From: a virus
Direction: 5' to 3' (one strand)
IMG/VR virus record: IMGVR_UViG_3300020048_000085
Length of the DNA stretch: 64,000 nucleotides
The notes beneath the pieces are model-generated. The model was not told the origin of the DNA, ran no database searches, and worked only from the letters and a program-made list of their open reading frames with translations. How positions within the stretch are numbered: the first letter of the stretch is position 1; every line of letters starts with the position of its first letter. This document shows, one piece after another, positions 11,389 through 63,481 of the stretch. Position numbers and translations under genes: made by a program.

Positions 11389-12102
11389 ATGATATTTATT
11401 GGATTAGATGTATCTAAAATTTCAACTGCTCTATGTATTGAAAAAAATGGAATAACTAAACTATATAGTTACTCTACTCAAAAAGATAATAATATTTGGG
11501 TTAAAGAAACAACATCATTTATTACTTATAGACATATTAAATATTCATATTTAGACGAACCTGATTATAGTAAATCAGAAATATTAAAATTACAAAACTT
11601 TGATGATGTAACAGACTTAATTATAAATGATATTTATGATAACGTCGGAATACTAGATAGTATCAGAATAGGAATAGAAGGATTCTCATATAATTCAAAA
11701 GGACCAATATTTGATTTGATAGAGTTTACCACTTTACTTAAACATAAATTATTACATAAATTAAATAAATATGGAGATATACAAATATTCGCTCCAATCA
11801 CACTTAAAACTGAAGCATGTAAAATGGCTTATAATCCAAGAATAGAAAAAAAAGGGGTTAGAGTAATAAAAGAAATTATTCATATAGAAAATGAAGAAGG
11901 TAAATGTGCAAAAGATTTTGATAAATGGGACATGCTTTACGCACTACTTAAAAGTAATATAGAATTAGAACTAAAAGAATGGGTATTTAATAATAAAGAT
12001 AATATAACAAAAATAAAAAAAGTACCTAAACCAATAGACGATGAAATAGACGCAATATTTCTAAAGGAAATAGTCAAAAGAATTTATTCAAAAAATAATT
12101 AA
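11389..12102 (+). CDS. RuvC-like (RNase H fold) Holliday-junction resolvase candidate
   Basis: The N-terminal MIFIGLDVS resembles the first acidic motif of RuvC, A22 and IS110-type DEDD nucleases. There is an internal GIEGFSY (Glu) and a C-terminal DDEIDAIFL (the D-A motif at the RuvC C-terminus). Confidence 0.4.
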   Translation: MIFIGLDVSKISTALCIEKNGITKLYSYSTQKDNNIWVKETTSFITYRHIKYSYLDEPDYSKSEILKLQNFDDVTDLIINDIYDNVGILDSIRIGIEGFSYNSKGPIFDLIEFTTLLKHKLLHKLNKYGDIQIFAPITLKTEACKMAYNPRIEKKGVRVIKEIIHIENEEGKCAKDFDKWDMLYALLKSNIELELKEWVFNNKDNITKIKKVPKPIDDEIDAIFLKEIVKRIYSKNN

Positions 12103-12246
12103 TATATAATACAAATAATTACGAGAAATATAAATTATATATATAATATATCATGATCTTGCATCTTTTTTATATTTATATGAGTATTAAGTAGTTGTAA
12201 AAATGTTAAATATCAACTTTATTGAGTATAATTTATATAAGATATT

Positions 12247-12456
12247 ATGTTATTAACCAAAGAAATAAAAATAAAAGTAAATTCAACAACATTTAAACAT
12301 TATAAGGAATGCGGATATGATTTTAAATGCGGAGAAGAAATAATAATAGATGTGAATCATTTAACCAAATCATCAGAATATAAAGTTAAAGTTAAATGCG
12401 ATGTTTGTAGTAGTGAAAAACAATTATCATATGGTAAATATTTAAAAAATATATGA
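12247..12456 (+). CDS. Small Cys-containing (zinc-ribbon-like) protein
   Basis: CGYDFKCGEE ... KCDVCSSEK give two Cys pairs within 69 aa. Confidence 0.35.
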   Translation: MLLTKEIKIKVNSTTFKHYKECGYDFKCGEEIIIDVNHLTKSSEYKVKVKCDVCSSEKQLSYGKYLKNI

Positions 12457-12485
12457 TTCTGGAAAAATAAAATTTAAATTTAAAA

Positions 12486-13388
12486 ATGTTTAAAGAAGGA
12501 AAAGAATATAAAATAAATAGTAAATACATAAAAGTATTTGGTCCTAAAATCAATGAAGAACAACAAATAGATCCAAATATAATACCAAATTTTCCTATAA
12601 ATAAACCAGTTAAATTTGATGTTGAGTTGATGAAAAAAGCAATTAAATATGGTTTAGTTATACTACTCTCATATCGTGGTGAAGATGATAAATGGCGTGG
12701 TGGTAGAGAAAGAACAGTTCAACCAATGGTACTAGGTTTAAATCTTAACACTAAGAATATGTTGTTGAGGGGATTTCACCTAGAGGGTTGGTCTGTATCT
12801 CAAAGAGCAGAAACAAAAAAAGTATGGAGATTATTTAAAACAGATAATATTATATCAATGACATTCACTGGAAATTTTTTCCGTATGCCACCAGTTTCCT
12901 ACAAGATGAACGATAGAATTATGACAGAGAAGATTTTAGCAAAGGCTGATTTTAATGATATAAGAAGAAACCAGAACACTTTGTTGAAAGGTGGACAAAT
13001 TCAAGCAGAAGAAGAAACAACTATCTCAAAAGAATCCGGAGGTGTAGTTAGCATTGAGATATCTAACTCTAATAGTCAAATCGATTTGAGATATCCATCT
13101 AAGAATTTACTTATAAATAAAAATAATTATAATCCAACTAGATTTTCTAAAGATTCTAGTACGCTTTCTATGAAATTTTCAGTTATGAAAAGTATGTTTG
13201 GAAATAAATATCTTGTCATTGTTGGTGCAATTGGTACTATTAATAGACAAGTTAAAGTATACGAAGGTAAAGTATTATTAGGTAATTATAGATGCATAAA
13301 ATCATTCTTAGGTTCAGATTTAGCTAACAATAAAATTGCTGATGGTAAGAATATTTTTGATTTGTATGTATTCAATAGAAAATTATAA
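12486..13388 (+). CDS. Hypothetical protein (300 aa)
   Basis: ORF only; no motifs recognised. Confidence 0.45.
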   Translation: MFKEGKEYKINSKYIKVFGPKINEEQQIDPNIIPNFPINKPVKFDVELMKKAIKYGLVILLSYRGEDDKWRGGRERTVQPMVLGLNLNTKNMLLRGFHLEGWSVSQRAETKKVWRLFKTDNIISMTFTGNFFRMPPVSYKMNDRIMTEKILAKADFNDIRRNQNTLLKGGQIQAEEETTISKESGGVVSIEISNSNSQIDLRYPSKNLLINKNNYNPTRFSKDSSTLSMKFSVMKSMFGNKYLVIVGAIGTINRQVKVYEGKVLLGNYRCIKSFLGSDLANNKIADGKNIFDLYVFNRKL

Positions 13389-13700: not shown

Positions 13701-14081
13701 ATGAAATATTTAAAAACTTTTGAATATAATTTATCAAACAAATCAATTTATTATAAAATAATAATTGATGGTTCATTTGATAAATTTACAATTGCTCTTG
13801 AAAAATTGGGTATGTTAGAATCTTTTTTATTTGATTGGGATATAAATGATTTTGATGATATTGAAGTAGAGAGTAAATATTTATTTTCTAATGAATATAT
13901 ATATTTAGCAATTGCTAAAAGTGAATATAGTAATAGAAGATATATTACTGATTTTACTCCAACCAATTTCATTGTCAGAAGATATATTACTGATTTTCCA
14001 GATTCTATACAAAAATTTGAATATGGTGGTGAAATAAAAATAGAAGATTATGAAATAGATTCAAAAAAATTTAATTTATGA
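13701..14081 (+). CDS. FKxFE/KKFNL family paralog (MKYLKTFEYN ... SKKFNL)
   Basis: It has both the N- and C-terminal family motifs and an ATGA overlap with the next gene. A TATATA element lies about 25 nt upstream. Confidence 0.6.
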   Translation: MKYLKTFEYNLSNKSIYYKIIIDGSFDKFTIALEKLGMLESFLFDWDINDFDDIEVESKYLFSNEYIYLAIAKSEYSNRRYITDFTPTNFIVRRYITDFPDSIQKFEYGGEIKIEDYEIDSKKFNL

Positions 14082-14422
14082 AACACATAAGATTATTTGA
14101 AGAGTTAGAATCACAATATAAAGTAGGTGATTATGTGTTAATTAAATATATACCTAAATCTAAATCATTATTAGAATTAATGAAATTTGTAAATAATTCA
14201 ATAGGTAAAATGATGTTTATTGATGAACGTAGTGTTATTTTAGAATATGTTGATATACCAGATAATATAAAGCATTATTTTAATGATAAAAATGTTGGAA
14301 ATAAAAAAATTAAAAATTCTGCTTTTTTTTGGTATCACAATAGTATAATAAATAGATTAGCTACTGAAGATGAGATAAAAGAATTTAAAGTTAAAAAAGA
14401 TTTAAATAAATTTAATTTATGA
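14078..14422 (+). CDS. FKxFE/KKFNL family paralog (MKHIRLFEEL ... LNKFNL) with a KVGDYV small-barrel motif
   Basis: Family motifs at both ends, with ATGA overlaps on both sides. Confidence 0.6.
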   Translation: MKHIRLFEELESQYKVGDYVLIKYIPKSKSLLELMKFVNNSIGKMMFIDERSVILEYVDIPDNIKHYFNDKNVGNKKIKNSAFFWYHNSIINRLATEDEIKEFKVKKDLNKFNL

Positions 14423-14820
14423 AATATATAAAAACATTTGAAAATAAAGAAAAATTTATAAAAATGACAGATAAGAATAAACTCAATAGAAACATTTATT
14501 ATTATTTGTTGTATGTGGATTCAATTGAAAAATTTGACTTCGCATTAGATAAAATAGGTATAAAAGATGATTTTTATGATGATATATGGGGTGCACAAGT
14601 TAATATTGATGAATATATTATACCTAAATTAGAAAAAGATAAAAAAATATATTTGAGTGTAGATTATTTTATTGAAAATTTTGACGTTTTTAATCATGAA
14701 CCAAGTGATGAAAAATTAGTATCACTGAGAGATGATAATGATAGAAAATGTAAAATAATATATGGTGGAGAGATATCAGTATATGATTATGAAATTATAG
14801 CAAATAAATTTAATTTATGA
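14419..14820 (+). CDS. FKxFE/KKFNL family paralog (MKYIKTFENK ... ANKFNL)
   Basis: Family motifs and ATGA overlaps. Confidence 0.6.
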   Translation: MKYIKTFENKEKFIKMTDKNKLNRNIYYYLLYVDSIEKFDFALDKIGIKDDFYDDIWGAQVNIDEYIIPKLEKDKKIYLSVDYFIENFDVFNHEPSDEKLVSLRDDNDRKCKIIYGGEISVYDYEIIANKFNL

Positions 14821-15158
14821 AACATATTAGAAAATTTAATGAGAAGAGACGACTAAAGACAGGAGATTATGTTTTAGTTAAATTAGATACTTATACACAA
14901 TCAACTGATAGAATTATACAAGCAAAAGAATATATAAACACACATATTGGTAAGTTGATTAATATAAATAATACTAGACTTGATGATGTTCGTATTGAAT
15001 ACAGAGATGTACCTGAACACATAAGAAGCTATTTTGGAACTTCTAACAAAGATGAAAATGCTTATTATAGATCAGTTGATATTGATAAAATAGTTGAATT
15101 TGGTTCAACACCAGAAGAATTAGAAGTATTTTTACAATCAAAAAAATTTAATTTATGA
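14817..15158 (+). CDS. FKxFE/KKFNL family paralog (MKHIRKFNEK ... SKKFNL)
   Basis: Family motifs and ATGA overlaps. It carries the TGDYVLVK motif. Confidence 0.6.
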   Translation: MKHIRKFNEKRRLKTGDYVLVKLDTYTQSTDRIIQAKEYINTHIGKLININNTRLDDVRIEYRDVPEHIRSYFGTSNKDENAYYRSVDIDKIVEFGSTPEELEVFLQSKKFNL

Positions 15159-15502
15159 AACACTTAATATTATTTGAAGATTTAAAAAAATCATCACCAA
15201 AATATAAAGTTGGAGATTATGTTCATATTGATATGGAACCAGATTTTGATTATGATGTTTGTTTAGCAAAAATTGTTGATGTTGATAATAATGGATTTTT
15301 AATTGAACCAGAAGATAAAGAAAGTAATGATTTTAACGATTATATTAACAAATATAATCCATTTCCATATTCAGTTAAATTTTATAAAAATGGCTGGAAT
15401 GTCGAAGAAAATTTAATAGATAGATATTTAACTGAAGATGAAATTGTATATTTTAATTTTTTAATAAAACATGGAACAGAAATAAAAAAATTTAATTTAT
15501 GA
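15155..15502 (+). CDS. FKxFE/KKFNL family paralog (MKHLILFEDL ... IKKFNL)
   Basis: Family motifs and ATGA overlaps. It carries the KYKVGDYVHID motif. Confidence 0.6.
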   Translation: MKHLILFEDLKKSSPKYKVGDYVHIDMEPDFDYDVCLAKIVDVDNNGFLIEPEDKESNDFNDYINKYNPFPYSVKFYKNGWNVEENLIDRYLTEDEIVYFNFLIKHGTEIKKFNL

Positions 15503-15765
15503 GTAAACTAAGTAATGATATTCACAAAATGTTAGGATATCTTAAAATAATACAACAATATAATTTTTTTGCACAATTAGGAAACGAAGATGATATAGAT
15601 TATTTAAAAGACAAAGTAGATAATTTATATTATATTGATGATAATGAACAACTTATTAAAGATTTTGAATGGTGTGCAAATATGGTAAATATGCTTTATG
15701 ATGAAGTAGATTCAGACTTCAAAAAGAGATTATTAATTGAAGAAAATGAAAATATAGATAATTAA
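15499..15765 (+). CDS. Hypothetical acidic small protein (88 aa), last gene of the plus-strand array
   Basis: It is translationally coupled (ATGA overlap) to the preceding gene and is followed by a hairpin terminator. Confidence 0.45.
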   Translation: MSKLSNDIHKMLGYLKIIQQYNFFAQLGNEDDIDYLKDKVDNLYYIDDNEQLIKDFEWCANMVNMLYDEVDSDFKKRLLIEENENIDN

Positions 15766-16300: not shown

Positions 16301-16621
16301 TTATAAATTGAATTTATTTGTAGCTAATAATAAATCAATATCTTCAAATTTCATTATTTTCCAATTTTCTCTATTTGTCCATTCATTATCATGGTATTTA
16401 TGAATAACAAAATCTAATCTTTTATTAGCAGCATCAATAGAGTCGAAATATGATATATTATCAATATTAATATCAATATCATTAATATTTTTTACTGTTA
16501 TAAAATCTTCTAAACCATGTCTACATAATAATAAAATTAAATAAATTTGTTCTATTGGACGATGTAAAATTAACACATATTTTTCTTTTTTCTTGAAAAT
16601 ATTAAATCTTTCTATTATCAT
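16301..16621 (-). CDS. FKxFE/KKFNL family paralog (MIIERFNIFKK ... ATNKFNL)
   Basis: Family end-motifs. Confidence 0.55.
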   Translation of the reverse strand: MIIERFNIFKKKEKYVLILHRPIEQIYLILLLCRHGLEDFITVKNINDIDINIDNISYFDSIDAANKRLDFVIHKYHDNEWTNRENWKIMKFEDIDLLLATNKFNL

Positions 16622-16624
16622 AAG

Positions 16625-17239
16625 TTATAAATTAAATTTATTTGCATCAAATAAATATGAATATTCTTTTTTTATTCTATAATGTATTTTCTCATCTTTA
16701 AATATTTTAATAAACTCAGAAGTATGCATTTCAATAAACACCTTTTGAAAATTATAATCAGTATTATAACTAAAATAATTAAAATTAGATATATCAGCAT
16801 TATTTTCTAATAAATATATAGCAACATCCCAATAATTATTTAATGCTGATGTCATTAGTGGTGATACATTACTATCATTTGATATATCTATATTTGCGCC
16901 ATTCTCAACCAACAATTTAACTATATCTAAATATCCATTATGAGCTGCTACATATAATGGAGTTGCATTAATACTATTGAAACTATTCACATTAGCATGA
17001 TATTTAATCATCAATTTAACTAATTTGATATCAGCAATATATACAGATAATGATAACATATTACCATAACAATTATTGTCATCATATATATTTGGATTAG
17101 CTCCATTTTTTAATAAATATTCAACTTTTTTTAAATTTGGTTTATTTAAACTAGCCACACTATTAATAAAATATAATAGATAGTCAATTAAATATTTAGT
17201 TTTATCTATATATTTTTCAAATTGCTTAATATATTTCAT
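16625..17239 (-). CDS. Ankyrin-repeat protein that is also a member of the FKxFE/KKFNL family (MKYIKQFEKY ... ANKFNL)
   Basis: It has at least three canonical ANK repeats, for example TPLYVAAHNGYLDIVKLLVENGANIDISNDSNVSPLMTSALNNYWDVAIYLLENNADI. Confidence 0.7.
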   Translation of the reverse strand: MKYIKQFEKYIDKTKYLIDYLLYFINSVASLNKPNLKKVEYLLKNGANPNIYDDNNCYGNMLSLSVYIADIKLVKLMIKYHANVNSFNSINATPLYVAAHNGYLDIVKLLVENGANIDISNDSNVSPLMTSALNNYWDVAIYLLENNADISNFNYFSYNTDYNFQKVFIEMHTSEFIKIFKDEKIHYRIKKEYSYLFDANKFNL

Positions 17240-17583
17240 AGATTGAATTTCTTTAAGTTTTTATTTATTTCTAATTCTTCTAATGTCTTTCCAGTTGCAA
17301 CAACATCAGAATATTTAAAACTTTTTATTCCACAATTATTTTTTTTGTCAATGAAAAACATTTTTAAATCATCTGGAATATTATCATATTTAACATAAAT
17401 TCTATACCATTGGTTTGATGGTTTTGCATAATCATCAAGTAAAAAACTATCAATTATTCCAATTGTATTATTTATAAAATTTCTCAAATCAATTAATATT
17501 TCACTCGGATAATTCGTTAATATATAATCACCAACAGAAAATTCTGGTATCATATTTTCAAATATTTTAAATTGTGTTATCAT
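17236..17583 (-). CDS. FKxFE/KKFNL family paralog (MITQFKIFEN ... LKKFNL)
   Basis: Family motifs and ATGA overlaps. Confidence 0.6.
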   Translation of the reverse strand: MITQFKIFENMIPEFSVGDYILTNYPSEILIDLRNFINNTIGIIDSFLLDDYAKPSNQWYRIYVKYDNIPDDLKMFFIDKKNNCGIKSFKYSDVVATGKTLEELEINKNLKKFNL

Positions 17584-18005
17584 ATATTAAATTTTTTTGA
17601 ATTTGTAATATATTTTGGTGTTTTATTTATAGCACGTTTAAATACATAAAATACATATTTAGTTATTGGATCACCAATATTATCTATTCTTGCATTATCT
17701 AAAATATATTTTATTTTATCATATAATAATATATCTTTTTCAAATTCTACGATTATTAATTCAATAGCATATTTTTTTACTTCATTGCGTATTCTATCGT
17801 CTATTTTATTATTTCCTTTTTTCCATGTGTTTGAACTGTAATATAAATTATATAATATAGAAAATATATAACTAAATTCTTCTGGTACCTTAAATATATT
17901 TTGAATAAATGATGTATCTTTTTTATACATTCTATCATAATAATTTAAATAATAATCAACCATAGATTGATCATATTTTTCAAATATTTTAAATTGTGTT
18001 ATCAT
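17580..18005 (-). CDS. FKxFE family paralog (MITQFKIFEK ... SKKFNI)
   Basis: Family motifs and ATGA overlaps. Confidence 0.6.
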   Translation of the reverse strand: MITQFKIFEKYDQSMVDYYLNYYDRMYKKDTSFIQNIFKVPEEFSYIFSILYNLYYSSNTWKKGNNKIDDRIRNEVKKYAIELIIVEFEKDILLYDKIKYILDNARIDNIGDPITKYVFYVFKRAINKTPKYITNSKKFNI

Positions 18006-18436
18006 AAATTAAATTTTTTAGCGTTCTCAATTAAAATCAACTTGTTTATTATATCTTTTTTTCTAGGTGGAATATAACCATAAATTGTAAATGGTGAATT
18101 AACATCAACTGAGTGAATAATATGTTCATCATTTTTTAAAATTAAATCTAATGATACAAACTCTTTTACTCTTTTTTTAGCTGTTCCTGTATAACCAATA
18201 CCACATCGTTCAACTTTACTAATAATACCATTATGTTTATTTTCATAATCAACAAGTACCTTTTTAATATTATTAAAAGAATATTTACTATAAAATTTAA
18301 CATTAGTACCAGGAATCAATAAATCAGTTAGAAATTTTTTAATTTTTGTATAACTACCATTATAATATTCTAATAATGTATTTAACATAAATGTTATTTC
18401 TTCTTGTGTATCAAATGAATCAAATTTAGTAATCAT
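18002..18436 (-). CDS. FKxFE/KKFNL family paralog (MITKFDSFDT ... AKKFNL)
   Basis: Family motifs and ATGA overlap. Confidence 0.6.
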   Translation of the reverse strand: MITKFDSFDTQEEITFMLNTLLEYYNGSYTKIKKFLTDLLIPGTNVKFYSKYSFNNIKKVLVDYENKHNGIISKVERCGIGYTGTAKKRVKEFVSLDLILKNDEHIIHSVDVNSPFTIYGYIPPRKKDIINKLILIENAKKFNL

Positions 18437-18442
18437 ATAATT

Positions 18443-18826
18443 TTATTTTTTTCTTAAATATGAAAAAACAACATCAAAAAATATTAGTTTAATACAAAAT
18501 GCTATTATAACCCATAAGAATGAAAAATTTAATACTATTATAATAGAAGCAATAATCATTAATAATTCAGATAAAAACCAAAATAAATGCCACGCATCAG
18601 TAAAAATAACAAATATAGTAGTACTACCTAAAAATTTTTCACCACTATGTGGATCATTATTTTTATATTTATTTAATGAACCTAATCCTTGCTCCCAAAA
18701 ATTTGGATTTAAATGATATTTCAAATATAATTTAGATTTATAAAATAAATTAGGAGATGATGATAAATCAGTAATTGATTTTGCAACTCCAGATAGGAAC
18801 AATAGTATTATAATTAATATTATCAT
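18443..18826 (-). CDS. Predicted small integral membrane protein (at least 3 hydrophobic helices)
   Basis: MIILIIILLFLSGVAKS... followed by a long hydrophobic C-terminal stretch. It is embedded in the paralog array. Confidence 0.4.
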   Translation of the reverse strand: MIILIIILLFLSGVAKSITDLSSSPNLFYKSKLYLKYHLNPNFWEQGLGSLNKYKNNDPHSGEKFLGSTTIFVIFTDAWHLFWFLSELLMIIASIIIVLNFSFLWVIIAFCIKLIFFDVVFSYLRKK

Positions 18827-18828
18827 AT

Positions 18829-19248
18829 TTATAAATTGAATTTTTTTGTTTCTTTATTTATATTTATTTCATCTATGATATCTTTAATATCATCAGGAAT
18901 AATACCATAAATATTCATTGGAGAATTTGTGTCTACATCATGTTTATATCTTATTCCTTTTAATTTTATTGTTAAAAAAATATAGTTAAATTCTTTATTA
19001 AAACCATAACCAAATCCCCTCACAACACCTTTATGTTGTTTATTTGAGTGCATGAAATAATTTAATCCTTTAATATCTTCTGTGCATTTTTTACATTCGA
19101 ATTTAATAACATTATTTTTAATTTCAAGTAATTTAAATATAAAATCACTTATAGATTCATTATCACCATTAAAATAACCAATAATATCATTTATTGTTAA
19201 TGTTACTTTATTTCCTGTATTTTCAAATAATTTGAATTGAGTTATCAT
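18829..19248 (-). CDS. FKxFE/KKFNL family paralog (MITQFKLFEN ... TKKFNL)
   Basis: Family motifs. The element ttatatatac lies immediately upstream of its ATG on the minus strand. Confidence 0.6.
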   Translation of the reverse strand: MITQFKLFENTGNKVTLTINDIIGYFNGDNESISDFIFKLLEIKNNVIKFECKKCTEDIKGLNYFMHSNKQHKGVVRGFGYGFNKEFNYIFLTIKLKGIRYKHDVDTNSPMNIYGIIPDDIKDIIDEININKETKKFNL

Positions 19249-19302: not shown

Positions 19303-20322
19303 TTAAAATAATTCCTTTAAAATATGTGTTCTTGATGCATAATTATATGCAACTTTTTCATTTTTTATAAAATCTTTTTTATTATTATATTTAGATGCGA
19401 CTTCTAAACATAATTCTTTATTCCAAAATAATCTACCATTTTTCATATGTGAACACACATCATCTATCCAATTACTTCTAGAACATCTTAAATATGATCC
19501 AGTTGAATTTTCATAAAAATCTTTTTTACAATTATATTTTAACGCTTCTTCTTTACATTTATTTTTTGTCCATTTTATAATACTACCACCTACACCTCCG
19601 CCTTTTATCTCATTTAATATATTATAATTGTTATTTCTATATTCTTCAATTTTCTCATCTTCCATTTTTTTAATAATATCAATATCTAAATAATCTGTCA
19701 ATTGTTTAAATATATAATTTACTTTTGTTTTGTGTTTATATTTGTATACTTGACTTTTTTTGTTGGTTTTGTGATAATAATTTCTAATATTTATATCATA
19801 TGTTAACCCTATATACACAGAATTATCATCAAATTCATAAATATATAAGCATCTTCTTTTTAAATTTCCACGATATATCATATGTTCACAAATTTCATCT
19901 ATCCATTTATTTTTGTGTGATATACTATATGCTGACATAGAATTAAATTTAAAATCGCTTTTATTATCATATTTTAATGCTTCTTCTTTACATCGTTCAA
20001 AATTCCAATAGTTTTTACATTTTTGATATTCTATCATATGCTCACAAATTTCATCCAACCAGTTATTTTTTCTTGAATATTCATAATATTTTTTGGAATT
20101 TTTTTGAAAATCAGTTCTTTTTGAATATTTATTTGCTTCATTTTTACACTCTATTTTAGAATATATTTTACAATTTTTATGCTTCATGTGTGAGCAAACA
20201 TCATCTAAAATATGATTGAAATATGCATAATTATATGCATAATTATCATTATTCATAAAATCTTGTTTAAATTTATATTTTAGTGCTATTTCTTGACATA
20301 ATTCTTTTGTGTATTTTATCAT
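19303..20322 (-). CDS. GIY-YIG endonuclease with tandem Cys/His-containing repeats of about 40 aa (W..E.C..HM / YxKCKE..LKY modules); the start is placed at the internal Met (MIKYTKELCQ), although the longest ORF extends to 20358
   Basis: GIY-YIG core YIYEFDDNSVYIGLTYDINIRNYYH, flanked by repeats such as KNKWIDEICEHM. The 20322 start is chosen because an RHH ORF occupies 20325..20498 in another frame, mirroring the paralogous cassette at 61809..63182. Confidence 0.55.
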   Translation of the reverse strand: MIKYTKELCQEIALKYKFKQDFMNNDNYAYNYAYFNHILDDVCSHMKHKNCKIYSKIECKNEANKYSKRTDFQKNSKKYYEYSRKNNWLDEICEHMIEYQKCKNYWNFERCKEEALKYDNKSDFKFNSMSAYSISHKNKWIDEICEHMIYRGNLKRRCLYIYEFDDNSVYIGLTYDINIRNYYHKTNKKSQVYKYKHKTKVNYIFKQLTDYLDIDIIKKMEDEKIEEYRNNNYNILNEIKGGGVGGSIIKWTKNKCKEEALKYNCKKDFYENSTGSYLRCSRSNWIDDVCSHMKNGRLFWNKELCLEVASKYNNKKDFIKNEKVAYNYASRTHILKELF

Positions 20323-20324
20323 AA

Positions 20325-20498
20325 TTATAATTTTATTTTTGATGTATTTATTCCACATTTATTAAAATAATCTAGCATTGCAAATTCTATATATTTTGAC
20401 TTGTTTGTAGTACTATCTAAAATCAAATCGTGTAATTCTGGAGACATAGAAATAGAAATTCTTATTTTTCTATCTTCTTCTTTTTTTAATGTTTTCAT
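20325..20498 (-). CDS. Small ribbon-helix-helix (CopG-like) protein immediately upstream of the GIY-YIG gene
   Basis: A 57-codon ORF (MKTLKKEEDRKIRISISMSPELHDLILDSTTNKSKYIEF...KIKL) with a beta-strand/helix-helix pattern. It is a paralog of the ORF at 63024..63182 and is too short for the ORF track. Confidence 0.35.
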   Translation of the reverse strand: MKTLKKEEDRKIRISISMSPELHDLILDSTTNKSKYIEFAMLDYFNKCGINTSKIKL

Positions 20499-20624: not shown

Positions 20625-20789
20625 ATGAGGAATAGAATTAAAAATGAAGAAAAAAATGTTAAAGTTGGAATTACAATACATCCAGATTTATCTAAAATAT
20701 TAGATGAATATTCAAAAGAAAATAAAATAACCAAATCTAAAGTCATTCAAAATATTATGAATGAGCATTTTAAAAATAAAAATAAATAA
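20625..20789 (+). CDS. Small ribbon-helix-helix (CopG-like) protein, divergent from the minus-strand RHH and immediately upstream of sbcDC
   Basis: MRNRIKNEEKNVKVGITIHPDLSKILDEYSKENKITKSKVIQNIM... A paralog is at 63290..63481. It is under 60 aa and so absent from the track. Confidence 0.4.
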   Translation: MRNRIKNEEKNVKVGITIHPDLSKILDEYSKENKITKSKVIQNIMNEHFKNKNK

Positions 20790-20792
20790 ATA

Positions 20793-23700
20793 ATGAAAAT
20801 TGTACACTTGGCTGATGTTCATATCAGAAATATTGAAAGACATGATGAATACAATACTATTTTTAGTAAAATAGTAAATAAATTAAAAGAATTAAAACCA
20901 GATAGAATAGTTATAGTTGGTGATTTGTTTGAAAGTTATATTGAAATTTCAAATGAAGCACAAATTATTGCAGGATTTTTTTTGACTGAATTATCTAAAA
21001 TTGCTAAAGTTATAATTACTCGTGGTAATCATGATATTCGTAAAAAGAATATAAACAGAGTAGATAGTATAGAAACAGTTATAAAATTGCTCAATAATAA
21101 AAATATTAATTACTATGATAAAACTGGTTTTTATGATGATGAAGATGATTTTGTTTGGGTTGTATATGAACACGCAGACAAATTAAATAATCCTTGGTCA
21201 AATAAGAAAAAAGAAGATGATAAAATATATATTGGTTTATTTCATGATCCAATTTTAAACGTCACGTCTAATACAGGTAGAATATTTAATGATTCTGCTA
21301 AATATAAAAATATTAATTATTTTAAAAATAATAATTTTTTGATGATTGGTGATATCCATAAACGCCAATTTTTAAGAGAAAATAAATCTGCTGCATATTG
21401 TGGTTCAACAATTCAACAAACATTTGGAGAAACAGTTGAAAAACATGGTTTCCTATTATGGGATATAAAATCATCTACTGATTTTGATATTACTGAATGT
21501 GATATTAAAAATGAATATACATTAATAAATTTATTTGTTGATGAAAATTCTGATTATGATAACTTAAATTTATCTGCAGATAATATTGGATTATATCCTG
21601 AATTTAAAGTACATTGGAAAGATTATTCTTCTAATATTAACACAGTAAATGAAAAAAAGATACGAGATTATATTAAAGAAAAATTTAATACAACTCAAGT
21701 AATTTTTGATAAAACTTATTTATATACAGATGTTTTATCATCTAAAATGCTTTCAGAATCTATTGATTTGACAGATGCTCAAACACAAAGAGAAATATTT
21801 GAAGAATATTTAAAAGAGCAAAAATATAAAACAGATGATATTGAATCAATACTTAATATTGATGATATTATTAATAGTAGAATTCAATTAACAGAACAAT
21901 TAAAAAATAATGAATGGAGTATTGATAAATTTTGGTTCAGCAATTTTAAATCTTATGGTGATGATAATGTTGTTGATTGGAGTGATATTTCAGGTTTAGT
22001 ACAAATTCATGGAGAAAATCAAGAAGGTAAAACTACAATTCTTGATGCTCTTATGTATATACTATATGGTAAAACAACCACAACATTAAGTCCAGAAAAA
22101 TTTGGAGATAATAGATATATAAACAATAAAAGGGATTTAAATAGTGTTAGTGGTGGAGCAATAATTAGTACTAATGGTAATAAATTTGTTATTCAAAGAA
22201 GCACAGAAAGAGTTTGGAATAAAAATAAAACTGCTTTAAGTGGTTGTCCAACTGTGTTAGATTTTTATAAGAGTGATGTTATTTGTGAAGAAAATAAGAT
22301 AACTGGTGAGCTTAAAAGTACAACACAAAAAGAATTAGATATAATATTAGGTGATTTGAAAGATTTCATTAGACTATCATTCACAAATGCTGATAATTTA
22401 AATGATTTATTATCTGAAACTAGAAGTGTGTTTATGGATAGTATTATTAGAGATGCTGGATATGATATATTTGAGACTAAATTAAATGAATTTAAGGAAT
22501 ATAAGAAAGAATTAACAGAAGAAAAATTAATAATTAATATTCAAGATTCTGAATTAACAATAGCTGATTTGAAATCTGATATTGATAGTAAGAGAGAAGA
22601 TATAAAGATTAATGATATTCAAATAATAGAATTTGTTGTTGATTTAAAAACAAATAATAAAAGTAGAGATAATTTAAATAAAAATTTAAATAATATTGAT
22701 TCTTCTATGATTAATTTTGATGAGGATTTGAATTTAAATTCAATTGAAAATTACAAAGATAAAATTGAAGAAGCGAAAATACAAACAACTATTTTAAATA
22801 GAGAAATTGATAAATTACCAGATAATTTTGATCCAACTAAATTAAATGAGTATAAAATTAAGTTAAAACAAACAAACAATAAAATATCTGAAAGGAAAGA
22901 TGAAATATCAAATCTTAGAAGATCATTAACAGAATCAGACAATAAAATAGATAAGGTAGATTCTAAAATAGTAGAATTGAAACAATCTGAAATTAAAAAG
23001 ATTTCTTTGAAAATTAGTGATAATGAATTAAATATTGAAGTTATTAAGAACAAAAAAGAGAATATAATAAAAGATGAATTAAAACAATTAACATCATCTA
23101 TTCAAAAAATTGAATTGGATAAAAGTGAAATAACATCTCAAATGAAACTATTACAACGAGATGGTGTAAATTCTAAAAAGTCGAATGATGAATTAGATAA
23201 AGAAATTGAAACCTTTAGAGATTCAAAATCTTGTCCAAGTTGTGGTCGTGATTATGATAAAAATGATCCAAAATATTCAGAGCACATATTACATTTAGAA
23301 GAAAAAATTAAAAGTCTTGAAAATAAAAAAGATGCTAATGATTTAATAATTCAAAAAAGTCTAAGTGAATATAATAAATTGAAATTGTCTATATCTGATT
23401 TTGATGATAAAATATCAAAATTAAAAGATAATAAAGATGATATAATAAAAGGAGTTTACTCAGAAGATATTCTAACTAAATTGAAAGTTGTTGGTAGTAG
23501 TAACCAATTAAAACAAGATAATATTGATTTAAATATATTAATAAATAATATAGAAAATGATAAATTTGAAAATTTAGATTCATTAAAAGAAAATATTGAA
23601 AAAGGTAATAAATTAAAAGAAAATATTGAAAAAAGTAAATCAGATACATTATTAGTCATAAAAAATATTGAATCAGAATTAAAAAATTTTGATATAGATG

Positions 23701-24542
23701 GTATTGAAAATGATATATCTATTGAAGAAACAAACAGAGATAATTTTGAATTAAGAAATAAAAAAGTTTCAAAGAAAGATAATATACAATTAACTATTGA
23801 AAATTTTAATTTAAAAATTAAAGATTTAAATTCAGAAATTGATAAATATCAATCACACAAAATTAAAATAGAAGAAAATAAACTAATACAAGATGATATT
23901 GATGAAATTGATAAAAAGATAACATCTATTAATGATGAAATTAAAAAATTAGAACAAGATAATATCAACAAGGAAAAGGATATGCTTCTTAAGCAAAATG
24001 AGATTCATTTAATTGTAACTAAAATTGAAAAGTATTTAGAACAAAAGAAAAAAGAAGAATTGCTGAAAGAATATCAGAAATGTATATCAAGAGATGGTTT
24101 ACCAACATTCTTATTGAAAAAATCTATTCATCTAATCAATAAAGAAATGTCTGAATTGTTAGTTAATGTTGATTTTACTTTATTTTTTGATGAAAATTTA
24201 ATATTAAGACTTAGTGCAAATGATAGATTGGATGTTAGTCAAAATGCAATTGAGAGTTCAGGTAAAGAAAGAACATTCTGTGCATTAGCACTTAAAATTT
24301 CATTAAGACAAATAAATGTAAAATCAAAACCAACATTTATAGTATTAGATGAAATAATGGGGAAATTAATTGATGGTAAAAAAACCAAATCAATAGAGCA
24401 ATTTGCAAATTTCTTAGATGATTTAAAACACAAAGTAAATAAAATAATAATAATTGAACATGTGCATAATATAAATTATGATGCATTAATTGAAGTTGAA
24501 AAAGATGAAAATTTAATTTCACATTTGGAATTAAATTATTAA
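20793..24542 (+). CDS. sbcCD: Single-polypeptide SbcD(Mre11)-SbcC(Rad50) fusion, a DNA double-strand-break processing nuclease/ATPase
   Basis: N-terminal calcineurin-like phosphoesterase motifs (DVH, VGDLF, RGNHD). These are followed by the Rad50/SbcC Walker A GENQEGKTT, a long coiled coil with a CPSCGR zinc hook, and a C-terminal Walker B/D-loop FIVLDEIMGKL. Confidence 0.8.
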   Translation: MKIVHLADVHIRNIERHDEYNTIFSKIVNKLKELKPDRIVIVGDLFESYIEISNEAQIIAGFFLTELSKIAKVIITRGNHDIRKKNINRVDSIETVIKLLNNKNINYYDKTGFYDDEDDFVWVVYEHADKLNNPWSNKKKEDDKIYIGLFHDPILNVTSNTGRIFNDSAKYKNINYFKNNNFLMIGDIHKRQFLRENKSAAYCGSTIQQTFGETVEKHGFLLWDIKSSTDFDITECDIKNEYTLINLFVDENSDYDNLNLSADNIGLYPEFKVHWKDYSSNINTVNEKKIRDYIKEKFNTTQVIFDKTYLYTDVLSSKMLSESIDLTDAQTQREIFEEYLKEQKYKTDDIESILNIDDIINSRIQLTEQLKNNEWSIDKFWFSNFKSYGDDNVVDWSDISGLVQIHGENQEGKTTILDALMYILYGKTTTTLSPEKFGDNRYINNKRDLNSVSGGAIISTNGNKFVIQRSTERVWNKNKTALSGCPTVLDFYKSDVICEENKITGELKSTTQKELDIILGDLKDFIRLSFTNADNLNDLLSETRSVFMDSIIRDAGYDIFETKLNEFKEYKKELTEEKLIINIQDSELTIADLKSDIDSKREDIKINDIQIIEFVVDLKTNNKSRDNLNKNLNNIDSSMINFDEDLNLNSIENYKDKIEEAKIQTTILNREIDKLPDNFDPTKLNEYKIKLKQTNNKISERKDEISNLRRSLTESDNKIDKVDSKIVELKQSEIKKISLKISDNELNIEVIKNKKENIIKDELKQLTSSIQKIELDKSEITSQMKLLQRDGVNSKKSNDELDKEIETFRDSKSCPSCGRDYDKNDPKYSEHILHLEEKIKSLENKKDANDLIIQKSLSEYNKLKLSISDFDDKISKLKDNKDDIIKGVYSEDILTKLKVVGSSNQLKQDNIDLNILINNIENDKFENLDSLKENIEKGNKLKENIEKSKSDTLLVIKNIESELKNFDIDGIENDISIEETNRDNFELRNKKVSKKDNIQLTIENFNLKIKDLNSEIDKYQSHKIKIEENKLIQDDIDEIDKKITSINDEIKKLEQDNINKEKDMLLKQNEIHLIVTKIEKYLEQKKKEELLKEYQKCISRDGLPTFLLKKSIHLINKEMSELLVNVDFTLFFDENLILRLSANDRLDVSQNAIESSGKERTFCALALKISLRQINVKSKPTFIVLDEIMGKLIDGKKTKSIEQFANFLDDLKHKVNKIIIIEHVHNINYDALIEVEKDENLISHLELNY

Positions 24543-59915: not shown

Positions 59916-61787
59916 ATGAGTGTGTCAGAAATATATAAATTACTAGAAAACGATTTGTTTTCAGAAGCTTCTATTGAAATTAAGAAACTAAATCAGAAAT
60001 ATCGTGATGGTGATCCTCAAATTAGTGATATAGATTATGATAAATTGATTGAATTGTTTCAAAGATTAGATCCAGATAATGAATTTTTTAAATCATCTGT
60101 TGTTGATGATGTTAATCCTGATAGAAAAGAAGCTTTGAAATTTCCAATGTTCTCTTTGGATAAATATCATTCTATTGAAGATATTCATAAGTGGTTAAAT
60201 AATAAAGGAATATCACTAGATGTAGAATTAGTTTGTACATCAAAGTATGATGGTATATCTATTCTTAAAGATGAATTTAATCAACTTGCATGGTCAAGAG
60301 GTGATGGTTTAGTAGGTGAGACTATGCATGAACATTGTAAAAAATTAAAATCTGATAATAAGAAAATCGATTTATTTACTATTGGAGAGATGCTTTTTTC
60401 AAAACCTTTTTTTAATAGTAAAATATTTTATAGAGATAATGGTGAACCATTTAAAAATGCTCGTAATATGATTGCAGGACTTAAAAATTCTGATACAGTA
60501 TCAGAATATTTAGTTGATGCTAAACATATTCGTTATGGATATGCTAATGAAGATTTTTCATTGAATAAATCTGAACAATTAGATTTTATTAATGAAAATT
60601 TCTCTACTGTACCATACAAAATAATTAAAGCAAAAGAATTGAATATTGATATGTTAAATGAGCTTTTTGTTAAGTGGGGCGAAGAGTATGATATTGATGG
60701 ATTAGTCTTTGATATTGATGATAAAAATATCAGAAAAAATCTAGGTCGTGAAAGGAACAACAATCCAGCATATGCCAGAGCGTTTAAAAATCCTCAATGG
60801 TCAGAAGCAAAAGAAACTATAATTCTTGATATAGAATGGAATATCAGTAAGAACGGATTACTTAAGCCAGTTGGAATATTACAACCTATTGATTTAGAAG
60901 GTGTTATAGTTTCAAGGGTGACATTGAACAATGCGAAGTTCGTCAAGGACTTCTGCATTGGAAAGAACACAATTTTGAAAATTTTGAGATCTGGTTTTGT
61001 CATACCAAAAGTGCAGAGTATTATAAAATCTACTGGATATGTTGAACCTGTTGTTGGAAACTCAAAAGTTTTCTGGAACGAAAATGGTGTAGAATTGATG
61101 GTTGAAGGTACGGAAGAACAGGAAATCAAAAAACTCATTTCTTTTTTTGAAATTCTTGGTGCAGAAAACGTGTCAGAAGGTATTATTAATCAATTGTATA
61201 ATTCTGGTTATAAAACTATTAAACAAATTTTAGATTTGACAACTGATGATTTAGAAAAACTTGAACGCTTTGGTGAACGGAAATCACAAATCGTTTTTCA
61301 ATCCATACATAATGCGGTTACAGACTTAAAATTATCTAAACTTATGCATGCAACAAATATTTTTAAAAATCTAGGATCGAAGAAACTTGATTTGTTGATG
61401 CATTTTGAAGGTAAACCAACATTTGAAGAAATACTTAAAGTCGATGGGTTTTCTGATATCTCAGCAAAAGCATATCTTGATGGATATGATGAATTTTATA
61501 ATTGGTTAAGTGATATGACAAAAATAACTATAGAAACTAAAAAAGAAAAAAACATTATGGAAAAAAATGATTTAGAAGGAACAGTATGGGTGTTTACTGG
61601 AATTCGATTAAAAACTGCTGAAGAATTGTTAATTGATAGAGGTGCAAAAATTACAACCTCTGTAAGTAAGAATACCACTCACTTGGTGTGTAAAGATCCA
61701 AATAGCGGATCAAGTAAATTGCTGAAAGCTATTGAGTTAGGTGTAGAAATTATGAGTGTAGAAGACTTTGAAGATTTTTTAAGTTGA
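59916..61787 (+). CDS. ligA: NAD-dependent DNA ligase (LigA type) with a C-terminal BRCT domain; no tetracysteine zinc-finger module is visible
   Basis: N-terminal Ia-like helical domain. Adenylation motif I TSKYDGISI (KxDG). OB and HhH regions. A C-terminal BRCT (WVFTGIRLKTAEELLIDRGAKITTSVSKNTTHLV). No Cys4 cluster lies between the OB and HhH regions. Confidence 0.88.
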   Translation: MSVSEIYKLLENDLFSEASIEIKKLNQKYRDGDPQISDIDYDKLIELFQRLDPDNEFFKSSVVDDVNPDRKEALKFPMFSLDKYHSIEDIHKWLNNKGISLDVELVCTSKYDGISILKDEFNQLAWSRGDGLVGETMHEHCKKLKSDNKKIDLFTIGEMLFSKPFFNSKIFYRDNGEPFKNARNMIAGLKNSDTVSEYLVDAKHIRYGYANEDFSLNKSEQLDFINENFSTVPYKIIKAKELNIDMLNELFVKWGEEYDIDGLVFDIDDKNIRKNLGRERNNNPAYARAFKNPQWSEAKETIILDIEWNISKNGLLKPVGILQPIDLEGVIVSRVTLNNAKFVKDFCIGKNTILKILRSGFVIPKVQSIIKSTGYVEPVVGNSKVFWNENGVELMVEGTEEQEIKKLISFFEILGAENVSEGIINQLYNSGYKTIKQILDLTTDDLEKLERFGERKSQIVFQSIHNAVTDLKLSKLMHATNIFKNLGSKKLDLLMHFEGKPTFEEILKVDGFSDISAKAYLDGYDEFYNWLSDMTKITIETKKEKNIMEKNDLEGTVWVFTGIRLKTAEELLIDRGAKITTSVSKNTTHLVCKDPNSGSSKLLKAIELGVEIMSVEDFEDFLS

Positions 61788-61794
61788 TGAATTA

Positions 61795-61828
61795 AAAAAC
61801 GTGGTGTATTATGCACCACGTTTTTTAT
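61795..61828. terminator. Bidirectional intrinsic terminator between ligA and the convergent GIY-YIG gene
   Basis: Stem aacgtggtg / caccacgtt followed by T6. Confidence 0.6.
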
Positions 61829-63020
61829 ATTTTGGAAAAAATTCATCTAACCAACCATTAATAGAAGAATAATTATATGCACTCCAAACACTTTTTCGAA
61901 ACTCACATCTAGAATTATATTTTTTAGATTCTTTTTCACACAATTCTTTATTATTCCAATATCTAAATATTGTTTTTGTTCTTATTGGATCAAGTAAATG
62001 TTGCCAATCTTTTTTTAGAATTGTAGTATATGCTCCTCCTGAATATTTAATAAAATCTGATAATTTTTCATATTTTTCGACTTCAATTTTACAAGATTCT
62101 ATTGTCCATTTTAAATCATGTGAACCAATTCCACCAGTTTTAACTTCATTTAATAATATCCATCCATTATTTTTATAATCATTAAGAGTTTCACCTTCTA
62201 ATAAAATTGCCAAATCAACATCTATGTAATCTGATTTTATTTTCAAAATAGGTTTCAGATTTGTTTCGTTCATATATTTTTTTACTGAACTTTTATCTTT
62301 TCCTATAATGTGCTGATTATTTCTTCTTTTTATATTTCCAGTTAACCCTACATAACAATGATTATCAGAAAATTCATAAGTATATATTAAACGTTTATAT
62401 TTATTTCCAATTTTCTTCAAATGTGATAATAATTCTAACCAATTTTCTTTATAAATTTTATTGTGTGCTGATACATATTTACTTTTCAACTCCTTTTTTG
62501 TCTCACATTTTAATGCAACTTCTTTACATTTTTCATAAGTCCAATAATTGTTACATTTTACTATCTTCATAGTTTTTGGCATCAATTCACTCCAATTATT
62601 TTTTAATATTTTTTCATATGCTGAACTACACTTACACTTTAATTCTGTGTTAGTTTTACAACTAGATGATATTTCTTTACACTTTTCATATGTCCAATAA
62701 TTTTTAGGTTTTTTATTTTCAAAAAAGTGTGAAAACAATTCTATCCAATTATTTTTCAAAATATTTCTATATGCGGAGCCATACAATAACATAAATTTGG
62801 TTATGCTCTCACATTCTAAAGCGGCATATTTACAATTTTCGTAATCCCAATATCCTTTTGGTTTTTTTCTCGCTATAATATGTGATATTAATTCATTCCA
62901 TTCATTCTTATTAATTGTATAATATGCGGTATAATATTTATTTTTTAATTCATTTTTGCTGGTGCATTACAACGCAGCTTCTTTACATTTCTCATATGTC
63001 CAATAATTTTTAGGTTTCAT
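61809..63020 (-). pseudogene. GIY-YIG endonuclease with tandem YEKCKE..LKC..ELK repeats, interrupted by a single in-frame TAA (plus-strand 62967..62969); the intact ORF is 61809..62792
   Basis: GIY-YIG core LIYTYEFSDNHCYVGLTGNIKRRNNQH. Reading the minus strand from the ATG at 63020 gives MKPKNYWTYEKCKEAAL, then a stop, then CTSKNELKNKYY...; this is in frame with and continuous into the 61809..62792 ORF. The repeat consensus shows a Lys codon at the stop position (AAA changed to TAA). Confidence 0.45.
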
Positions 63021-63023
63021 ATT

Positions 63024-63182
63024 TTACAATTTTATTTTTTTAATTCTATCATCTGCATATTTTTCATTTAAGTCATTATATATCAGCCATTCAATATATT
63101 TTGATTTATTTGAAATTAATTCTATCATTAAGTTATCTAATTCTTTGTTTATAGATATTCTAATATTTGATTTTTTTACCAT
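63024..63182 (-). CDS. Small ribbon-helix-helix protein immediately upstream of the GIY-YIG gene (paralog of 20325..20498)
   Basis: MVKKSNIRISINKELDNLMIELISNKSKYIEWLIYNDL...KIKL. Its stop lies 3 nt before the GIY-YIG start. It is 52 aa and so absent from the ORF track. Confidence 0.35.
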   Translation of the reverse strand: MVKKSNIRISINKELDNLMIELISNKSKYIEWLIYNDLNEKYADDRIKKIKL

Positions 63183-63289
63183 TACCTTTTTTATTGTATA
63201 TATAAATATATAAAAGTTATAAAGTGATTTTTTGGTGATTTTTTATAAACTTTTTTAAAATAAATTTATAATATAAATAAAAATATTAT

Positions 63290-63481
63290 ATGTCAAGACA
63301 TAAACTATCAGATGAAAACAAAAAGCCTAAAATAAGCATAACATTAAATAAAGATTTGGATATTATTTTACAGAATTATATAAAAAATAATGATTTAAAC
63401 CGTTCAAAATATATTGAAAATCTCATAAAGAGTGATATGGAAAAAAGAGGATATAAAATAAAAGAAGATTTTGAGAAATAA
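63290..63481 (+). CDS. Small ribbon-helix-helix (CopG-like) protein, divergent partner of 63024..63182 (paralog of 20625..20789)
   Basis: KISITLNKDLDIILQNYIKNNDLNRSKYIENLI aligns with KVGITIHPDLSKILDEYSKENKITKSKVIQNIM. Confidence 0.4.
   Translation: MSRHKLSDENKKPKISITLNKDLDIILQNYIKNNDLNRSKYIENLIKSDMEKRGYKIKEDFEK

Follow-up and report, generated by a model that had tools for sequence, protein, structure and literature searches.

Does a stop codon inside the reading frame of a selfish nuclease gene mark a recently inactivated gene, a programmed device that sets the dose of the enzyme, or simply an error in the sequence? The question is raised by a locus in a 64,000-nucleotide stretch (the window) of the viral record IMGVR_UViG_3300020048_000085, whose source contig is 83 kb and which has a G+C content of 22.8% in the window. 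The locus is the second of two copies of a cassette in which a GIY-YIG endonuclease gene lies behind a small ribbon-helix-helix (RHH) gene, here called RHH_A, and in which a second RHH gene, RHH_B, diverges from the first. A first-pass annotation of this DNA had described the nuclease frame of copy 2 as continuous from 63020 to 61809 except for one TAA at 62967..62969, and had left three explanations side by side: a recently inactivated selfish element, programmed readthrough or reinitiation, and a sequencing error. Translation bears out the frame, and the evidence presented below favours the first explanation over the other two. In our view the TAA probably arose by a true point mutation that turned codon 18 of a free-standing, homing-type GIY-YIG endonuclease gene into a stop, with GAA to TAA as the likeliest change.

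A single stop codon interrupts the endonuclease frame

The ancestral endonuclease frame (61809..63020, minus strand) consists of 403 sense codons followed by a terminal TAA, and its translation contains a single internal stop, at codon 18 (62967..62969, minus strand), where the next base is a T (TAA-T). The predicted protein begins MKPKNYWTYEKCKEAAL*CTSKNELK. Seventeen sense codons (62970..63020, minus strand) can still be translated from ATG 63020, which is identified as the authentic start by its context and by the N-terminal motif of the product. What remains downstream is an open reading frame (ORF) of 327 aa (61809..62792, minus strand), which corresponds to the public gene call P0001 and starts in the middle of the second repeat of the protein, at an ATG with a start-context score of -15.1. 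When the frame is read through the stop, the copy-2 nuclease shares 64% identity with the intact 449-aa orthologue P0003 across 98% of its length.

The stop codon is present in three assemblies

Two contigs in the ENA collection are 100% identical to the window across the TAA, namely k141_143182 of ERZ27262919 (1518 bp; locus L001 in our set of related loci) and k141_275702 of ERZ27262918 (762 bp; L090). Both ENA assemblies were made with MEGAHIT, and the comparison is confined to metagenome assemblies. A random sequencing or assembly error is unlikely, because the change is a substitution that lies outside the near-identical parts of the internal repeats and is the same in both ENA contigs.

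A broader form of this objection is that the TAA is an artefact of sequencing or assembly, or a minority allele that happened to be assembled, and that the phage population carries an intact gene. The agreement of three assemblies (the two ENA analyses and the 83-kb contig), 100% identical across the site, argues against this, as do the position of the stop outside the near-identical repeat segment and the nature of the change, a substitution and not a homopolymer indel. What lends the objection some weight is that all the evidence comes from metagenome assemblies, that the nuclease gene contains near-identical repeat segments of 38 nt, and that the short ENA contigs (762 and 1518 bp) suggest low coverage. 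On balance we regard an artefact as highly improbable, and the sequencing error suggested in the first-pass annotation is disfavoured by the exact match of both ERZ27262918 and ERZ27262919 to the window. Degenerate DNA patterns with NNN at the codon, searched against viral and metagenome contig collections for alternative alleles, gave no match, the source contig itself being also unmatched. Likewise, no exact-protein match is on record for the window ligase or for its 106-aa neighbour.

The ancestral codon and the age of the lesion

The nearest DNA relative, L021, reads GAA GCT GCG TTA GAA TGT where the window reads GAA GCT GCG TTG TAA TGC. Because L021 has GAA at this position within near-identical flanks, Glu is likely to be the ancestral residue, and a G to T change (GAA to TAA) would be the simplest route to the stop. 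The expectation that a Lys codon had stood at this site thus finds no specific support: Lys (AAA) is indeed the family consensus at this position of the repeat and is likewise one step from TAA, but the closest relative has Glu, and the orthologues carry M, I, L, N, E or T there.

Several observations bear on the age of the lesion. Firstly, the copy-2 nuclease has no further frame disruptions and keeps all the catalytic invariants. Secondly, its identity to P0003, the best orthologue, is nearly the same in aa 1-76 (59%) and in aa 77-206 (60%), so that the 5' segment shows no excess of divergence. Since the frame and the catalytic residues are intact and there is no excess of 5' divergence, the sequence points to a very recent knockout of the nuclease. 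Furthermore, the ligase-adjacent orthologues of L002, L003, L004, L005, L011, L012 and L021 are all uninterrupted. The comparison with related genomes that had been proposed as a check thus finds intact genes at the same site in these loci.

The stop codon does not behave as a recoding signal

TAA is the stop codon of 57 of the 77 confidently placed genes of the window, and in 23 of those it stands in the TAA-T context; at the level of the messenger, UAA-U is the strongest termination context in bacteria. The window contains no tRNA genes and no Rfam matches. Only three adjacent gene pairs in the same frame are split by a lone TAA, and an alternative code is not suggested by them, because each downstream gene has its own start at or just after the stop. 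An excess of genes interrupted in frame was not found in the window either. Reassignment of the stop codon was rejected on the grounds that TAA is the commonest terminator, that the window lacks tRNA genes and that in-frame interruptions are not in excess. Frameshifting was rejected as well, the same frame being used on both sides of the stop. As for reinitiation close to the stop, the only nearby ATGs, read from the sequence, are out of frame and open mini-ORFs of 2-5 codons; the first ATG in frame is found 175 nt further on, and its start context is very poor.

The nuclease family provides a second line of evidence. We surveyed 93 family ORFs in the related loci, about 70 of them distinct, and found repeat sequence in frame upstream of a stop only in the copy-2 nuclease and in the identical L001 copy. 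Because no other surveyed ORF of the family has such an interruption, the stop appears to be neither conserved nor programmed. Homing endonucleases are known to be under tight down-regulation, as reviewed for T4 (PMC2988022), and a programmed stop could serve the same end if readthrough, suppression or termination followed by reinitiation supplied a low dose of full-length nuclease and so throttled a toxic enzyme; the perfectly continuous frame on either side of the TAA would suit such a device. Nevertheless, TAA-T ends 23 window genes in the normal way, no tRNA gene is present in the window, the feature is missing in all other family members examined, and no in-frame start codon occurs within 175 nt past the TAA. 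Programmed readthrough or reinitiation, the second of the explanations left open by the first-pass annotation, is therefore disfavoured, and we consider it so improbable that it can practically be set aside.

The authentic start and the possibility of a shorter enzyme

A motif resembling a Shine-Dalgarno sequence precedes only 3 of the 77 window genes, whose leaders are A/T-rich, and because of this scarcity translation initiation in the window appears to be independent of such motifs. The same scarcity suggests a host that initiates without Shine-Dalgarno pairing. We therefore assessed candidate starts with a start-context matrix built from the 77 window starts and compared with 1330 internal ATGs. 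ATG 63020 scores 7.3, above 79% of the true starts, and only 0.2% of the internal ATGs score higher. By this measure ATG 62792 (-15.1) lies below all 77 true starts and is exceeded by 86% of the internal ATGs, ATG 62570 (-13.1) also lies below every true start, and ATG 62582 (0.0) falls at the 13th percentile of the true starts.

The protein sequences lead to the same start. The ligase-adjacent orthologues share with the copy-2 nuclease the N-terminal motif M-K-(K)-P-x-(G)-Y-W-T-Y-E-K-C, and in nearly all of the intact genes of the family that were examined, the start coincides with the boundary of a repeat and the product opens with a motif like M-K-(K)-P-x-G-Y-W-T-Y-E-x-C. A start in the middle of a repeat, like that at ATG 62792, was seen in none of the other family members examined. 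The ancestral start is ATG 63020, and the public 327-aa call P0001 is a truncation artefact, because ATG 62792 lies in the middle of repeat 2 in a poor context and the relatives start at a repeat boundary. This call would be better recorded as a pseudogene or as a disrupted gene of 403 codons. A similar uncertainty over the start concerns the copy-1 nuclease, whose longest ORF starts at ATG 20358, overlaps RHH_A and has a poor context (-5.5); ATG 20322, 2 nt past the RHH_A stop, scores 4.4 and is likely the true start.

It could be argued that the nonsense mutation is real but tolerated, and that a shorter, active endonuclease is made from ATG 62582 (257 aa) or, less plausibly, from ATG 62792 (327 aa), so that the cassette would be remodelled and not dead. 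The natural number of N-terminal repeats varies from 0 to at least 7 in the family, whose short members include one with a single N-terminal repeat (P0020, 253 aa), one with two (P0014, 252 aa) and one with none (the gene at 1962..3080 of L074). The catalytic core and the C-terminal repeats are untouched by the stop, initiation here does not depend on Shine-Dalgarno motifs, and the score of ATG 62582 lies within the range of true starts. The other internal candidates, ATG 62792 and ATG 62570, fall below that range, and at any internal start the translational coupling to RHH_A would be lost. Moreover, 175-390 nt would remain untranslated after the premature stop, and such a stretch normally triggers polarity. 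No family member begins at an equivalent internal position with an MPKT motif. Taken together, these points make a shorter active enzyme unlikely, and we continue to read the stop as a loss-of-function mutation.

The endonuclease and its helical repeats

The restored protein has three parts. Four N-terminal helical repeats (62409..63020, minus strand) follow one another with an exact 51-aa period, with W-x-Y-E-x-C cores at aa 7, 58, 109 and 160. They are followed by the catalytic core (62169..62390, minus strand; aa 211-284) and by two C-terminal helical repeats (61812..62126, minus strand) with cores at aa 305 and 355. The core matches Pfam PF01541 (GIY-YIG) over aa 211-284 with 23.5 bits, against a cutoff of 22.6. 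In an alignment of 23 sequences, Y137, Y147, G149, R157, E199 and N215 are invariant and H161 is nearly so, and all of these residues are present in the copy-2 nuclease, which thus carries the conserved Tyr, Tyr, Arg, His, Glu and Asn of the GIY-YIG superfamily. An AlphaFold2 model of P0001, calculated with a 23-sequence alignment, has a mean predicted local distance difference test score of 82 and shows a beta-beta-alpha-alpha-beta-alpha core between modules of three to four helices. The core has the GIY-YIG fold, and it is closest to that of the homing enzyme I-TevI.

For the helical repeat modules, Pfam gave no match and the PDB no similar fold. They may act in DNA binding, on the model of the modular regions that serve this purpose in other homing endonucleases. 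The nuclease family corresponds to PHROG 20046, which is labelled 'unknown function', and it occurs also in Vibrio schizoT4-like phages, in Rhizobium phages and in huge uncultivated phages. None of Pfam, PHROG, NCBIfam and PADLOC assigned the repeats, RHH_A or the neighbouring genes to a named family.

The RHH genes and their control region

RHH_A (63024..63182, minus strand) is an intact gene of 52 aa that ends with a TAA at 63026..63024, and three bases (AAT) separate this stop from the nuclease ATG at 63020..63018. RHH_B (63290..63481, plus strand) is also intact, encodes 63 aa, and is transcribed divergently from RHH_A, away from the nuclease and toward the downstream phage genes. These coordinates agree with the RHH positions and the 3-nt gap reported earlier. 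The RHH genes of L021 are close relatives of both: identity is 81% (aa) and 87% (nt) for RHH_A, and 87% (aa) and 90% (nt) for RHH_B.

The assignment to the RHH class is supported at the level of family profiles. With a custom RHH hidden Markov model (HMM), RHH_A is matched with an E-value of 1e-19 and RHH_B with one of 2e-26. When a profile of 24 RHH members was compared with the PDB, the top matches, at E 0.002-0.15, were all RHH proteins; the Rv0298 antitoxin, SIRV 56B, NikR, CopG and HicB3 were matched at E 0.002-0.26. Among the same 24 members, Pfam reports RHH_3 in 6, RHH_1 in 3 and RepB-RCR_reg in 3. RHH_B also has weak Arc-like and CopG-like PHROG matches. The 52-aa RHH_A by itself gave no database match and is tied to the class only through the family HMM; it ends in a conserved hydrophobic C-terminal tail, I-K-K-I-x-L.

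Between the two genes lies a divergent control region (63183..63289) with direct repeats and a sigma-70-like promoter predicted for RHH_A. The repeats, AAAAAATCAC, stand at 63244-63235 and 63233-63224 with an 11-bp period, and 4 of 1000 shuffled sequences reach the observed length. The predicted promoter consists of the -35 hexamer ATAACT (63220-63215) and the -10 hexamer TACAAT (63198-63193). A sigma-70-like promoter of the form TTGACT-N16-TAnnAT before RHH_A is a conserved block in 12 cassettes, and in 9 of these 12 direct repeats with a period of 10-12 bp (22 bp in L016) lie directly upstream of the -35, each of them reached by at most 5.5% of shuffles. The repeat motif differs between cassettes: AAAAAATCAC occurs twice in copy 2, and the motif is AATTAC in copy 1, TGTTAA in L002, L004 and L005, and AAAGTAT in L032. 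RHH operators would be expected to show such a pattern; we regard the repeats as putative operators, at which the RHH proteins may repress transcription. The -35 hexamer is degraded in copy 2, where ATAACT stands in place of the TTGACT of copy 1, L002, L004, L005 and L011; L021 has ATGACC. It should be noted that the promoter call is based on conservation across loci and not on the sigma-70 scan of the window, which gave 28 matches where 20 were expected and is uninformative in DNA of 23% GC. A near-consensus TTGACA-N17-TATTAT within 63268..63296, further upstream, overlaps the start codon of RHH_B; L011 and L021 do not share it, and in such AT-rich DNA it may have arisen by chance.

About a quarter of the sampled members of the nuclease family have a small DNA-binding gene coupled upstream, among them RHH genes of different types (L074, L057 and L024) and, judged from the sequence, a probable helix-turn-helix gene in L050.

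The cassette recurs at different sites and behaves as a mobile unit

Copy 1 of the cassette has the same layout as copy 2, as had been reported earlier, with the GIY-YIG gene at 19303..20322 (minus strand), RHH_A at 20325..20498 (minus strand) and RHH_B at 20625..20789 (plus strand). Within the window the custom RHH HMM detects no more than four such genes, namely the pair of each cassette. Since the two nucleases share only about 35% aa identity, the two copies are old paralogues and not recent duplicates. A cassette with RHH_B divergent from RHH_A and the GIY-YIG gene is present in at least 13 other loci (L002 to L005; L011, L012/L013, L016, L017/L018; L021/L022/L025; L032, L035, L080, L082/L084).

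In the window, L002, L004, L005, L011, L012, L021 and L032, the nuclease gene is convergent with a gene for an NAD-dependent DNA ligase. The convergent genes of the window share a strong bidirectional terminator hairpin (61793..61827), detected by a terminator scan (RNA fold -17.7 kcal/mol, z -7.9), which includes the last GIY-YIG codons and the stop. The nuclease is therefore a stand-alone gene at an intergenic site beside a conserved ligase gene. Two related loci, L006 (ligase 75% identical) and L007 (71%), carry neither a cassette nor an RHH gene behind the ligase. The ligase gene of L016 and L017 comes immediately after RHH_B; the cassette there is on the other side of the ligase. The L035 cassette is flanked by homologues of the window genes 11389..12102 and 12486..13388, a position without a cassette in the window, and a Mre11-Rad50 fusion gene follows RHH_B in copy 1. 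Thus, the cassette recurs, and its presence or absence at the same site varies among relatives (L006/L007; L035). Because L006 and L007 lack both the cassette and any RHH gene, and because the cassette occupies other sites elsewhere, the three genes are gained and lost together, which points to a mobile unit. Homing may be the mode of spread.

The copy-2 cassette is also a mosaic. When the window (61809..63481) is compared with L021 (3558..5368) and L002 (3410..5238), nucleotide identity to L021 is 87-90% in RHH_B, the control region, RHH_A and the first ~17 codons of the nuclease. The body of the nuclease, on the other hand, is closest to L002 (70-90% aa identity in the core) and only ~35-55% identical to L021. 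The similarity switches from L021-like to L002-like near the stop codon, inside the repeats. The ligase gene (59916..61787) is mosaic as well: compared with L006 (1090..2964), aa identity is 97-100% in most 40-aa windows of alignment columns 321-600 and ~40-60% at both ends (C-terminus ~40-57%), which indicates recent recombination inside the ligase gene. The nearest relatives of the window ligase are those of the 630-640 kb uncultivated phages LR745206 and LR756502 (43% aa identity), followed by those of Bacteroides phages.

Several features of the cassette sites and their surroundings may be recorded here. The gene that follows the copy-1 cassette is a single ORF of 1249 aa (20793..24542, plus strand), in which a Mre11-like phosphoesterase is fused to a Rad50/SbcC-like ATPase, and it starts 3 nt past the RHH_B stop. 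The 384-bp gap (12103..12485) at the position of the L035 cassette contains an ORF of 69 aa (12247..12456, plus strand) with two Cys pairs (MLLTKEIKIKVNSTTFKHYKECGYDFKCGEE...VKCDVCSSEKQL) and no Pfam match, which may be left over from another mobile nuclease. Small genes form two facing arrays (13701..15765, plus strand, and 16301..19248, minus strand) that include paralogues at 28-37% identity; none of these genes has a Pfam match, and in many of them the ATG comes right after nearly the same A-rich leader, AAAAAAATTTAATTT. Finally, in the ENA contig of ERZ1426628 that carries P0008 and comes from a related phage, two adjacent ORFs about 5 kb from the RHH_B side of the cassette match the release-factor domains PCRF and RF-1, as if a release-factor gene had been split or recoded.

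Probable decay of the nuclease and possible role of the cassette

Based on these results, we propose the following explanation. The locus is a three-gene mobile cassette in which two paralogous RHH genes stand back to back and are transcribed from a short control region with tandem operator-like repeats, and in which the nuclease gene, 3 nt behind the leftward RHH_A, is probably translationally coupled to it. In the lineage of the window this cassette has the NAD-dependent DNA ligase gene on one side and the following operon on the other. Ribosomes that start at ATG 63020 would terminate after 17 residues and, given the very poor context of the next in-frame ATG, little or no nuclease would be made, so that nuclease activity is presumably lost. 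Homing endonuclease genes usually decay once no empty sites are left to invade, and the copy-2 nuclease would be at an early stage of this decay, with both RHH genes remaining intact and well conserved after the knockout. The lesion itself is an ordinary event, the start of the decay expected for such selfish elements.

The idea of a recently inactivated selfish element, put forward in the first-pass annotation, gains support from the presence of the stop in three assemblies, from the intact orthologues at the same site, from the presence/absence polymorphism of the cassette and from the lack of extra 5' decay. Some observations do weigh against it. ATG 62582 (MPKTMKIVKCNNYWTYEKC...) has a borderline start context and would yield a 257-aa protein with one N-terminal repeat, which is the architecture of natural short members such as P0020, and with Shine-Dalgarno motifs in only 3 of 77 genes the rules of internal initiation are poorly defined here. 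The three assemblies that carry the TAA may share one sampling series. Finally, the mosaicism of the ligase gene gives no clean co-conversion gradient and does not follow the presence of the cassette.

A different view of the cassette is that it is an addiction or competition module, in which RHH_A would be an antitoxin-like inhibitor or regulator of a GIY-YIG toxin, as in a type II toxin-antitoxin pair or as in P22 immI with a nuclease in place of ant, and in which the stop would disarm the toxin. A small RHH gene does lie immediately upstream of the nuclease and is coupled to it, the best PDB profile matches include the RHH antitoxins Rv0298 and HicB3, RHH_A has the hydrophobic tail I-K-K-I-x-L, and the divergent RHH/RHH layout resembles that of Arc and Mnt in P22. 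However, the searches with PADLOC and NCBIfam placed the cassette in no known type II toxin-antitoxin family, none of the toxin-antitoxin or defence matches rising above noise (e.g. MazE, with 18 bits where 65 are required). The homing enzyme I-TevI is the closest match of the nuclease core; like the T4 seg genes, the cassettes stand in intergenic positions next to conserved genes of DNA metabolism and are present in some relatives but absent in others; and most members of the nuclease family have no RHH partner. An addiction module thus seems quite improbable to us, and a homing-type element remains our preferred reading.

Within the framework of a homing-type element, we may speculate that RHH_B, the operator/promoter block and RHH_A, which together make up the regulatory half of the cassette, have been domesticated as promoter and repressor of the adjacent phage DNA-metabolism operon, and that the nuclease half is a swappable and expendable payload. 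This would fit the mosaic structure, because the RHH genes are 87-90% identical in nucleotide sequence to those of L021 while the nuclease body is only ~35-55% identical at the aa level. It would also fit because RHH_B always runs straight into a phage gene at its flank, which is the Mre11-Rad50 fusion gene in copy 1, the ligase gene in L016/L017 and the homologue of window gene 12486 in L035, and because both RHH genes are intact in copy 2. If so, the nonsense allele would represent a cassette that is losing its nuclease while keeping its regulators. We hold this idea tentatively and regard it as doubtful, though worth stating.

Beyond the fate of one gene, the results describe a recurring module that joins two repressor-like genes to a repeat-bearing GIY-YIG nuclease and moves among sites beside DNA-repair and replication genes of very AT-rich uncultivated phages. 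The naturally disarmed allele, which occurs beside intact relatives, is a ready-made control for studying the nuclease and its regulators.

Comparison with known systems

No paper linking RHH genes to GIY-YIG homing endonucleases in phages was found, nor did the literature searched contain one that describes the RHH/RHH/GIY-YIG cassette, which we regard as a modestly new version of the theme of the free-standing homing endonuclease. With respect to its regulatory half, a close parallel is the immI region of phage P22, where the small RHH repressor genes arc and mnt diverge from a compact operator/promoter and one of them leads an effector gene. The cassette likewise has two divergent small RHH genes, one of them ahead of an effector; it differs in that no specific homology was detected beyond the RHH fold (PHROG Arc-like E 1e-5 to 6e-3) and that its effector is a nuclease and not an antirepressor.

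With respect to the nuclease, the cassette is close to the free-standing SegA-SegG enzymes of T4-like phages. In T4 segF lies between soc and 56, and segG between 32 and 59, and both are free-standing genes that target the neighbouring gene (PMC2988022). Like these, the copy-2 nuclease has a GIY-YIG domain and is encoded by a lone intergenic gene, not within an intron, between conserved DNA-metabolism genes, and it varies in presence or absence among related phages. Unlike these, its putative DNA-binding part consists of tandem 51-aa helical repeats that flank the core and have no Pfam or PDB fold match, and its gene follows an RHH gene to which it is coupled, a second RHH gene being placed divergently.

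The regulation of the nuclease may be compared with that of I-TevI, encoded in the td intron of T4, whose expression is held down by binding to an operator at its own promoter (PMC2988022). Repression at the operator level may be common to both. However, I-TevI is encoded within an intron and uses its own DNA-binding domain to repress itself, whereas the cassette contains no intron and separate RHH proteins are the likely repressors.

Finally, the fate of the copy-2 nuclease recalls the cycle of invasion and degeneration. After invasion, the genes of homing endonucleases undergo degeneration (PMC4059233), and a defunct I-TevIII is present in T4 (PMC2790892). As there, a simple lesion would here have put a selfish nuclease gene out of action while its surroundings persist. 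The lesion of the copy-2 nuclease is a lone nonsense codon with no further decay, and it would thus represent an earlier stage than the deleted or truncated examples.

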